Assembly: GCF_033153115.1 (NCBI RefSeq)
Contig: NW_026889752.1
Span: forward strand, 10,726,001-10,790,000
Direction of reading: 5' to 3'
Length of the DNA: 64,000 nucleotides
From: Saccostrea echinata
Lineage: Eukaryota
Both the position numbers and the translations under genes were made by a program. Below, piece after piece: positions 32,901-35,900 of this stretch. The notes beneath the pieces were generated by a model. The model saw nothing but the letters and a program-made list of their open reading frames with translations. It was not told where the DNA came from and made no database searches. Every line of letters begins with the position of its first letter. Positions within the stretch are counted from its first letter, which is position 1.

Positions 32901-35900
32901 GTCATGGCAGGTGTTGGCACGATAAAGATCCCTCACTGCTCAATGGCCCTGAGTGCCGAGTAAAGGTCCAAATTTGAAGCCCTTCACCGGTATATGGTGA
33001 CGTCTCTATATGAGTGAAAAATTCTCGAATGGGACGTAAAACAACATACAATCAATCAATCAATCAAAACTTACTTGATTTTGCATAATAGCATGCACTC
33101 TACAGGGAAACTCATTTTGTGTGTGAATTTACCTTACATAAAGACATATGTCAAGGTGAGCTCGTAATCTTTAAAATCTAAGAAATAAATTCGTTTACAT
33201 TATATTACAAACTGAAAATTGCGAAAATTTCATAATATTTGTGCTTACAGTGACTGTCTGTTATTTTTCCATGATGGGATAGTTCTGTCATGAAATATAT
33301 ACTCATATGCAACCCAGTAAACTTTCTATTTTGTAAAATGAGTGCGGTTGTGTCAGTATGATCTTGTTTATTCTACAGGATTAGTGTAATTTTGACAATT
33401 TTAGCTGGTTTATTCAATAGAATGAGTGTATTTTTGTCAGTCTGAATTTGTTTATTCTATAGGATGAGTGTAGTTTTGTCAGTCTGAGCTTGTTTATTCT
33501 ACAGGATGAGTGTAGTTTTGTCAGTCTGAGAGATGTGGAGAGAGTCCTTGAGGTGATGAGCTGGTTTTACAGACAGAGTCAAGGGGAGACAAATCTGTTT
33601 GATCTGATGGAGGACGAGGAGACAGATTCTGGGGAAGAAGAGGAGCAAGAAATGAAGGGCAACGGGGTTAGCCAGGGTTTCTGACATTTATATTATTTCG
33701 ATTGACAATTTTATTCATAATAATCAAATTCCCTATACAACAATGCATGCGAAAATTAAGTTATTAAATCATTTCAGACTGTCAGTGATTTGACAAAGTC
33801 ACTTGTTCTAGCTCTTGGAGTCTGCTACCATGCTTGTTTGAAAAACAGAGAGGAGTTCCGAAAGGAAATGGTCAATGAGTTTAGATCTCCATGTATTTTC
33901 CCAACAGGTCAAAAAGGTGCTGACCATATGTTGGATATTATTACCAGGTGCATATTGAATAGAATGACTTTGGAACCATGCTTTTGTTAAACTTTTGACA
34001 CTATATGTTATTTTCAAAAAATTGATATGTTGCTGACTTATTCTTAGTCAATGAATAACTGAATTTTTAGATACCAAAATGTTTTCTTGGAGATCGATAA
34101 CTTAGGAGCCAGCGTTGCCAAGAACCAGGCTTTGAGAGAGAATGTGTTTATGATGGTGGTCTGTATAGAGCTCAGAATCCCTCTTTTCTTGGTGGGAAAA
34201 TCTGGGAGTTCTAAGTCTCTAGCTAAAACCATTGTAGCTGATGCCATGCAGGGAAATGCTGCCCATACTGAAATTTACAGGAACTGCAAACAGGTAATGA
34301 AGCATGACTTAGTTACTGTCAGTTTGGTAATAACGTCTCTAGAGTTATCGTATTCCGGAGGATGAAAATTTCAATTCTTTCTCGTAAAATTTATAATATT
34401 TGTTCCTCTTTCGATTTTTTAAAAGGTACAAATGTTGTCTTTCCTATGCAGTCGTTTGTCTATGCCAGAGGGAATTGTAGGAATTTTCCGTCAGTGTGCC
34501 ATGTACCAGAAAGACAAAGATCTCAATAGATTTGTCTCTGTTGTGGTTCTGGACATGATGGGACTTGCTGAAGATTCTTCCAAAATGCCGTTTACGGTAG
34601 TCACTAAGGATTATTCCACCTGAATGTTTTTACATTTTTTTTTACAATTTACTCTTGAAGTGATTCATTAATTCTATTTGAGTAAATCTTGTTATTAGTT
34701 AACGAATTGTGTTGTGAATAAAAAAAATCTCTTTTCACGATAGGTTTTGCATACTTTGCTAGAAGATGGGTGTCAGGGTGATGAAATACCAGAGGAACAT
34801 AAAAAAGTAAAATTTTCAAGAGTCTATAGTTTTTTAATGTTCTAATGACCCTTTGTTTTAAATTTCATCCAAAAAACTAATATTCATTCTTAACTTTTTT
34901 GGATCTCATAGTCATATATTTCTTTCAAATTTCTCTGAAGTTAACTACCTCATATCCTATTTCAAAATATATTTCTAGTAAATCTTCAGTTGTTATCATG
35001 GAAACAGTTAGTGAAGTTGATTTTTTTTCTGACAAATACTTCTTATGCAAATGTTATTCGAGGAAATGAAGCTTCGAATCATCTTTATAAGAGAAATAAG
35101 AAATAAAAAAAAATAATTTCGGTATTCTATTTATTAATGTGAGAAAAATTTAATTAAAAGAAAACTGACATTTAGATAGAAATTAACTTATCTCCCTTTG
35201 ATGACTGTGGACTCTGTAGTGTGGTGTGTACATGTATCAGTATTTTATTTCGGTGAACGGTGTTGTCATAGTTACTAAAAAAAGAAAATGAATTTTGTGA
35301 AATTCTTTCAAAATGCTAGTGCTCTTCAATATTAGTCTGATTTCAATGTAACTGGGTACACAGGTAAACCACACTAAGATACATAATTCTCTATATAGTT
35401 TTTTTTAAAATTTTCTGTCAACGATGTTGCCTTGTTTACAAAAAATAGAAAATCCTGAGAAATTCTTTGAAATCGCTACTCCTCCTACAGTTTTAGTCAT
35501 ATTTCAGTATAGCTGGGTACACAATCAGACACTTAATACTGTTTAAAATTTTCTATTTCGTTGACTGTATTATCATGGTTACTTAAAATAGAATTTGTGA
35601 AATTCTATCAAAACGCTTCCCCTTCTGCAATTGTAGTCCACAAGCAGACTACAAGTAATTCTGTTTATCGGCTTTTGATTTCGATGAATGATGATGTCAT
35701 GGTTATTAAAAATAGAAATTTCTGTAAAATTGTTTAGAATGCTACACCTTCTACATTTTAGTCGTATTTTAAAATAGCTTGGTACACAAGTAAACTACAC
35801 ATAGATACATAAATTCTGTATATCAGTTTTTAATTTCAAGAAACAGTAGTCATAATTACTAATACTAGAAATTTTTGTGAAATTCTTTTAAAAAGCAACT

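Follow-up and report, generated by a model that had tools for sequence, protein, structure and literature searches.

We have examined a window of 64,000 nucleotides of Saccostrea echinata DNA (G000:C3:10726001-10790000) and find that g2, a tandem duplicate within an oyster cluster of the immune ubiquitin ligase RNF213, encodes methionine in place of the catalytic glutamate of its AAA4 Walker B motif. The gene is under relaxed yet still purifying selection and the damage to it clusters on AAA4 and the regulatory inserts IR3 and IR5. Judged from sequence, it is an even call that g2 is a translated paralogue with AAA4 hydrolysis and the loops controlling it decommissioned, the ligase being cut off from the AAA4 off-switch, probably holding ATP at AAA4 and acting beside intact copies.

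The Walker B codon and the gene that carries it

An earlier note on this DNA had read GAC ATG ATG, translated DMM, at window positions 34552-34560 of g2, and these codons are present in the assembly, the one source from which they are read. The exon concerned, exon 32 of the 79 in the g2 model and the 15th within the window, is translated SVVVLDMMGLAEDS and aligns gap-free to residues 2763-2818 of mouse RNF213 (7oik), its first methionine falling on E2806, the AAA4 Walker B glutamate according to PMC12075652 (in excerpt) and the equivalent of human E2845. The human residues named in the note, K2775 and E2845, are those given in an excerpt of PMC11549300, and the AAA3 motifs which it described as intact, GETGCGKT and FFDEAN, are so in g2. 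Sister copies carry GAG at this codon, the change to ATG thus involving two bases, in agreement with the minimum of two that had been proposed.

In a search of the oyster's own genome (seven matches among nine candidates), the other copies read DEV in six of six cases. The Walker B glutamate column of 216 homologues aligned to the sister copy, a set which includes one g1 isoform, contains 214 Glu, 1 Asn, 1 Gln and no Met. Further representatives (150 listed, 13 overlapping the first set, 137 new, 135 covering the site) have Glu in 132 of 135 cases, Asp in two, Gly in one and Met in none. No protein bearing the DMM exon was observed among 27 matches of 31 candidates in a search of 101-2000 aa or among the best 120 of 2217 in a search of 2126-6768 aa, and thus the matches listed include no annotated product of g2 and no orthologue. 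The top match to the exon, P0191 of Saccostrea cucullata (85%), was rejected as the g2 orthologue, as it keeps the glutamate and is nearer to g1 and g3 throughout. Among the sequences compared, the change from DE to DM is private to g2, with no orthologue carrying Met found.

Nor is the substitution an isolated one: the earlier note overlooked a Pro>Ser change in the AAA4 Walker A motif and nine other changes in the Walker B exon. The Walker A motif of g2 reads GKSGSSKS, with proline present in 204 of the 204 homologues that cover the position, and the Walker B exon carries, besides Glu>Met, changes with respect to both sister copies (V>L, Q>L, P>R, V>M, T>I, V>M, P>S, R>K, L>F, K>T). The Walker A Pro>Ser change, together with Q2552L, P2555R and N2915H, surrounds the AAA4 pocket.

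The g2 model spans G000:C3:10650594-10823704, extending past both ends of the window, which carries exons 18-45. Exons were projected from the sister copies g1, located upstream (P0042), and g3, located downstream (P0044), both represented by Saccostrea echinata records that are exact translations from this contig, with exons 1-11 and three shifted boundaries set by hand to fit splice signals. A further copy, g5, is matched by P0050, and g4 consists of a set of rearranged fragments. The model comprises one open frame of 4,308 codons in 79 exons, with no premature stop, frameshift or broken splice site, all internal splice sites being AG/GT or AG/GC, and the locus is thus not truncated. Stops that were apparent in projected exons disappeared after the use of shifted donors. 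Approximately ten indels private to g2 are each a multiple of three in the model, and a 73-residue deletion after the AAA ring was dropped as a candidate lesion, as it is in frame and removes a poorly conserved stretch containing no column at least 90% conserved.

By descent g2 is RNF213, being collinear over the AAA ring, E3 module and CTD and nesting among RNF213 sequences, where it groups with g1 (P0219) and P0083 with a support of 0.95. P0219 was considered as a g1/g2 chimera or a product of g2 and rejected, as it is an isoform of g1 of greater length. Of the features that define a canonical RNF213 enzyme, g2 appears to retain both Walker motifs of AAA3 along with its sensor I and arginine finger, and the RZ-type zinc finger; it lacks the AAA4 Walker B Asp-Glu, the Tyr3078 plug (the inserts IR3 and IR5 themselves being present) and a full N-arm. 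The RZ finger is assigned through its identity to g1 over the 35 residues compared, g1 (P0042) scoring PF20173 at E=1e-19. At its start g2 has a double zinc ribbon (PF12773) that continues in phase into the distal stalk, and five tblastn queries for the N-arm ahead of ∼mouse 1040, to which P0044 residue 680 aligns, gave no match in the 140 kb upstream, with the positive control found at g1. The missing part covers the position of the human CBM20 domain, residues 378-515 as stated in an excerpt of PMC11549300.

Across 15 kb of exons and introns, the 3' half of g2 shares 96.9–98.2% identity with g1, and the E3/CTD halves (G000:C3:10806808-10825494 and 10529153-10552676) are 95–98% identical with their introns; the AAA parts of the two genes are ∼20% diverged at fourfold sites. 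Fourfold-site divergence between g1 and g2 along the 3' half takes values of 0.11, 0.05, 0.01, 0.00, 0.09 and 0.13. The g1-like 3' half of g2 is likely the result of gene conversion, and its open frame says little because it has been homogenised with g1.

Splicing of g2 upstream of the codon is observed in run X1, in which one 231-nt contig without differences from g2 crosses the joint 33945-34069 at GT..AG; X1 is taken to be RNA by guess, none of the 17 runs listed being on record as RNA, and transcription is represented by this one low-depth contig from one run. As g2 is only 87.7 and 84.6% identical to g1 and g3, respectively, over this stretch, the contig is g2-derived. Its loose end matches the 3' end of exon 29, and it stops one exon upstream of the Met codon. 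No g2-like contig over the Met codon was detected in the four sequencing runs examined, and half of the query words were present in none of the 17 runs listed. Glu-Val contigs of runs X9 and X3 were rejected as g2 alleles, having many differences from g2; being paralogue-like, they are uninformative on g2 alleles.

Table 1. Position of g2 features within the window
Feature	Coordinates	Strand	Remark
Exons 18-45 of g2 (AAA ring)	7288..55139	+	Projection from g1/g3
AAA3 Walker A exon	23445..23565	+	GETGCGKT intact, Lys codon 23488-23490
AAA3 Walker B exon	25512..25753	+	FFDEAN intact, Glu 25629-25631; then AACNPY intact, Asn 25740-25742, presumably sensor I of AAA3
Two exons encoding IR3 (mouse 2487-2538)	27068..27534	+	Map to mouse 2491-2517 and 2520-2561
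Exons 29-31 (part)	33505..34120	+	Covered by the spliced 231-nt contig of run X1, no differences from g2
AAA4 Walker A exon	34071..34293	+	GKSGSSKS; Pro>Ser 34201-34203, Lys kept 34213-34215
AAA4 Walker B exon	34426..34596	+	Asp kept, Glu->Met 34555-34557
GISNW, KMNRG and GLRDFY motifs	40886..41332	+	Asn 40907-40909, Arg 40937-40939 and Arg 41319-41321 all kept; assigned by us to sensor I, the arginine finger that serves AAA3, and sensor II, respectively
AAA5 and IR5	47364..48164	+	Codon 48079-48081 ATT (Ile) at mouse Tyr3078; 7/31 conserved IR5 columns changed
Exon with AAA5 arginine finger for AAA4	48509..48697	+	Arg 48570-48572 kept; private Asn>His adjoining

Constraint on g2 and its parallels

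Private amino-acid changes over P0044 residues 1478-3180 number 141 in g2, 22 in g1 and 68 in g3, and at columns at least 90% conserved 43, 0 and 0, respectively. In an author-built three-branch codon model from which the g1-like 3' half was left out, dN/dS is 0.25 for g2 versus 0.12 for the sister branches (p=1e-5), and a value of 1 is rejected (p=8e-28; 1,692 codons). In the AAA3 region dN/dS is 0.33 in g2 versus a background of 0.04; one of the 56 conserved columns of the AAA3 core is changed in g2. A dN/dS above 1 was observed in no region tested, the ratio being far below 1 in all. A recent, short neutral phase of g2 is disfavoured, as it would be expected to leave 4.6–5.3 nonsense changes in the AAA core (P of none 0.005–0.01) and, across the unconverted 5' part as a whole, 8–9 nonsense changes plus 4–5 splice hits, with no such change observed in either, in a test that leaves frameshifts uncounted and assumes that the excess change is neutral and that the sister branches represent the correct background.

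Changes at conserved columns affect 30 of 214 positions in AAA4L-AAA5 versus 13 of 261 elsewhere (p=7e-4). Taken together, the AAA4 core, IR3 and IR5 have 19 of 96 conserved columns changed versus 25 of 380 others, these regions having been picked after the data were seen. In IR3, the limits of which are mouse 2487-2538 (PMC7311170, in excerpt), three of 27 conserved columns are changed, one of the three also differing in g1 and g3, and the private changes include L2261A and G2275D (P0044 numbering). In IR5, the isoleucine codon at 48079-48081 is flanked by positions aligned gap-free to mouse 3077 and 3079 and therefore replaces Tyr3078, a residue described in the excerpted text of PMC7311170 as sterically blocking nucleotide binding at AAA4. 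Residues kept in g2 are the Walker A Lys/Ser, the Walker B Asp, the putative sensor residues and the arginine finger, Arg 48570-48572 corresponding by offset to the arginine finger mouse Arg3127 (bioRxiv 10.1101/2021.05.10.443411, in excerpt). Joint survival of seven ATP-binding residues has a chance of 0.2–0.35 and is not significant alone. The AAA4 site of g2 is predicted to bind but not to hydrolyse ATP.

The same glutamate is lost in two other bivalve records, to other residues and with separate origins, the latter by the tree for P0196. In P0196 (Mytilus trossulus) the AAA4 Walker B Glu and the plug Tyr are both replaced by Asn, IR3 and IR5 are changed, and conserved-column hits amount to 18 of 96 in the AAA4 core, IR3 and IR5 versus 14 of 380 elsewhere; the sensor II Arg is lost too, and the record stops near the hinge. 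In P0197 (Ruditapes philippinarum) the change is Glu>Gln and the record stops before IR5. Neither record reaches the E3 module, whereas the frame of g2 stays open as far as the CTD. Among the 247 of 269 sequences that cover both sites, proteins of <400 residues being left out, a changed plug Tyr is seen in 4 of the 7 whose AAA4 Walker B has changed versus 19 of the 240 others (p=0.002, the rows not being independent because of kinship), a hint of co-alteration of the two sites. g2 and P0196 overlap at ten shared columns (P=3e-4); a convergence unique to this pair was rejected, as P0072 and P0176 equal this overlap within a set of 190 comparisons. In P0074, P0075, P0208 and P0258 the AAA4 Walker B Asp is replaced by Glu (EE), and the IR5 tyrosine is changed in two of these four.

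With respect to mammalian RNF213/mysterin (mouse 7OIK, 6TAX; human 8S24, 9G08), the linker, six-unit AAA ring, hinge, E3 with RZ finger and CTD are collinear, as shown on the sister copy. In g2 the AAA3 motifs and the AAA4 Lys, Asp, sensors and arginine finger are the same, whereas Glu>Met, Pro>Ser, Tyr3078>Ile, the altered IR3, the lack of an N-arm ahead of ∼mouse 1040, the zinc-ribbon start and the 73-residue deletion are differences. The engineered WB4 mutants (mouse E2806Q, human E2845A) have lost the same residue; g2, in contrast, is natural, carries Met rather than Gln or Ala, has ∼40 other conserved-site changes and N-arm loss, and is known from sequence. In the excerpted reports on mammalian mutants, ATP binding persists in RNF213 Walker B mutants, and oligomers are stabilised when second-module hydrolysis is lost (PMC3963067); WB4 retains in vitro E3 activity with sustained ATP activation and is labelled at ∼100-fold lower ATP, stable WB4 cell lines were not recovered, and in structures of ATP-loaded mutants no basis for activation is visible (PMC12075652); human E2845A is neither recruited to vacuoles of Toxoplasma or Salmonella nor able to restrict growth (PMC10769850). 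A precedent within the same ring for ATP held without Walker B catalysis is provided by AAA2 of RNF213 and dynein (PMC7311170, in excerpt). AAA2 is ancestrally inactive, however, whereas AAA4 of g2 is an ancestrally active site lost in one paralogue, for which ATP binding is predicted. No description of natural RNF213 Walker B variants or of oyster RNF213 paralogues was found in a literature search of titles and abstracts, mostly open-access.

Competing readings of g2

If g2 is a translated paralogue with a decommissioned AAA4, duplication would have rendered the AAA4 hydrolysis cycle dispensable in this copy, with the Glu>Met change and without the Tyr3078 plug AAA4 would stay loaded with ATP in the manner of the non-catalytic AAA2, and the loops controlling the AAA4 cycle, IR3 and IR5, would then be freed from constraint. 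The product would be an RZ-type ubiquitin ligase without its own targeting arm which, given the N-arm loss and by analogy with human E2845A, would not coat pathogens alone and could act as a low-threshold or accessory ligase beside intact g1, g3 and g5. A caveat to the ATP-loaded state is that Glu>Met is not isosteric and, combined with the pocket changes, may have abolished ATP binding as well. A purely local story is opposed by the 13 conserved-column hits outside AAA4-5, where the sisters have none, and by relaxation of the AAA3 region. The earlier proposal of a differently regulated immune paralogue rather than a dead gene survives in part: the 4,308 open codons, canonical splice sites, g2-specific spliced contig and dN/dS well below 1 speak for it, as does the mammalian WB4 mutant, which retains ligase activity and is activated at ∼100-fold lower ATP (PMC12075652, in excerpt). 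As framed it does not hold, since g2 is not a clean point variant, with 43 private hits at conserved columns and most of the N-arm missing; in the excerpted text of PMC10769850, moreover, human E2845A is neither recruited to pathogens nor restrictive.

The main rival reading, less likely yet live, is that g2 is instead a redundant duplicate at an early stage of decay, constraint fading across the AAA ring and Met being one lesion of many, with the frame kept open by recency, by gene conversion from g1 or by selection only against truncated products. The excess of private changes in g2 over g1 and g3, both overall and at conserved columns, points in this direction, as does an AAA4-5 conserved-column divergence that is the highest of 180 sequences. 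The N-arm loss and 73-residue deletion, the lack of an annotated product or orthologue among the matches listed, the two repeat-bounded insertions in intron 45, the survival of cluster member g4 (L004) only as rearranged fragments, and the state of the closest parallel, P0196, which lacks the sensor II Arg and terminates near the hinge, are further points in its favour. However, stops, frameshifts and broken splice sites are absent where several are expected, dN/dS is far below 1 in each region tested, the damage is concentrated rather than uniform, and the 73-residue deletion touches no column at least 90% conserved. We consider it improbable that g2 was selected as an always-on or hair-trigger sensor, in which removal of both AAA4 brakes, hydrolysis and the IR5 tyrosine plug, would render the RZ ligase active at resting ATP. 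Each of the two changes is predicted to shift the balance towards the ATP-bound form (PMC7311170 and PMC12075652, in excerpt), and the altered tyrosines that accompany altered Walker B motifs lie on separate tree branches, in rows that are not independent. Yet dN/dS exceeds 1 in no region, loss of constraint predicts the same Tyr/Walker B co-occurrence, the overlap between g2 and P0196 is equalled by other sequences, and the failure to recover stable WB4 cells, as reported in part of PMC12075652, hints at a cost.

An assembly artefact, either in the Met codon or at the junction of the 5' part to the g1-like 3' half, is very improbable. The codon is read from the assembly alone, and the 97–98% identity of the 3' half to g1 is near what two alleles could show; against this, the change affects two bases that lie outside any homopolymer, an independent contig located one exon upstream is an exact match to g2, and g1-g2 divergence shifts gradually along the 3' half, as for conversion tracts of different ages. 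A broader proposal, that bivalve RNF213 expansions repeatedly yield arm-less, constitutively ATP-activated RZ ligases, in which AAA4 hydrolysis and the IR5 plug are lost together, serving as amplifiers recruited by intact copies, is a long shot. If true, it would imply a division of labour between sensor and executor in the family and provide a natural model of the activated state uncaptured by cryo-EM.

g2 bears on the question of how the RZ ligase is turned on, at a distance, by ATP binding in the AAA ring. As a natural full-length copy from which both the WB4 glutamate and the proposed autoinhibitory Tyr3078 are gone, g2 represents a ready-made test of the IR5 model, and the residues released in two bivalve lineages (AAA4 core, IR3 and IR5) offer evolutionary support for loops controlling AAA4. 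If g2 is merely decaying, its value shrinks to a map of released residues.

Further features of the cluster

Intron 45 of g2, 23 kb in length, contains two repeat-bounded elements. An LTR retrotransposon on the gene strand occupies window 57858-64000, its second repeat ending at window-equivalent 64495; its 0.6-kb direct repeats are 96.7% alike, its reverse transcriptase and integrase domains are interrupted by stops, and it includes a C2H2 zinc-finger frame at 62767-63177. The second element, at G000:C3:10793496-10802754 (L018-L019), has 1.05-kb direct repeats that are 98% alike. At window 33321-33530 the acceptor and start of exon 29 recur in a number of tandem copies, some of the sequence having decayed, with the nearest upstream copy lying 42 bases from the acceptor, a distance that would preserve the frame.

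At the 5' end of g1, zinc-ribbon and long exons at G000:C3:10452590-10458713 match P0083 residues 1-644. These upstream exons are absent from the named g1 records. Two zinc-ribbon-like exons are also present in g1, and its annotation looks incomplete at this end. The g4 fragments (G000:C3:11437054-11449652) are rearranged and include isolated AAA3 and AAA4 exons, the Walker B exon keeping DE with an extra Arg and other changes. Two distant RNF213 copies, L006 (C39) and L007 (C52), have an identical translation over both exons shown and represent either a recent duplicate or an uncollapsed haplotype.
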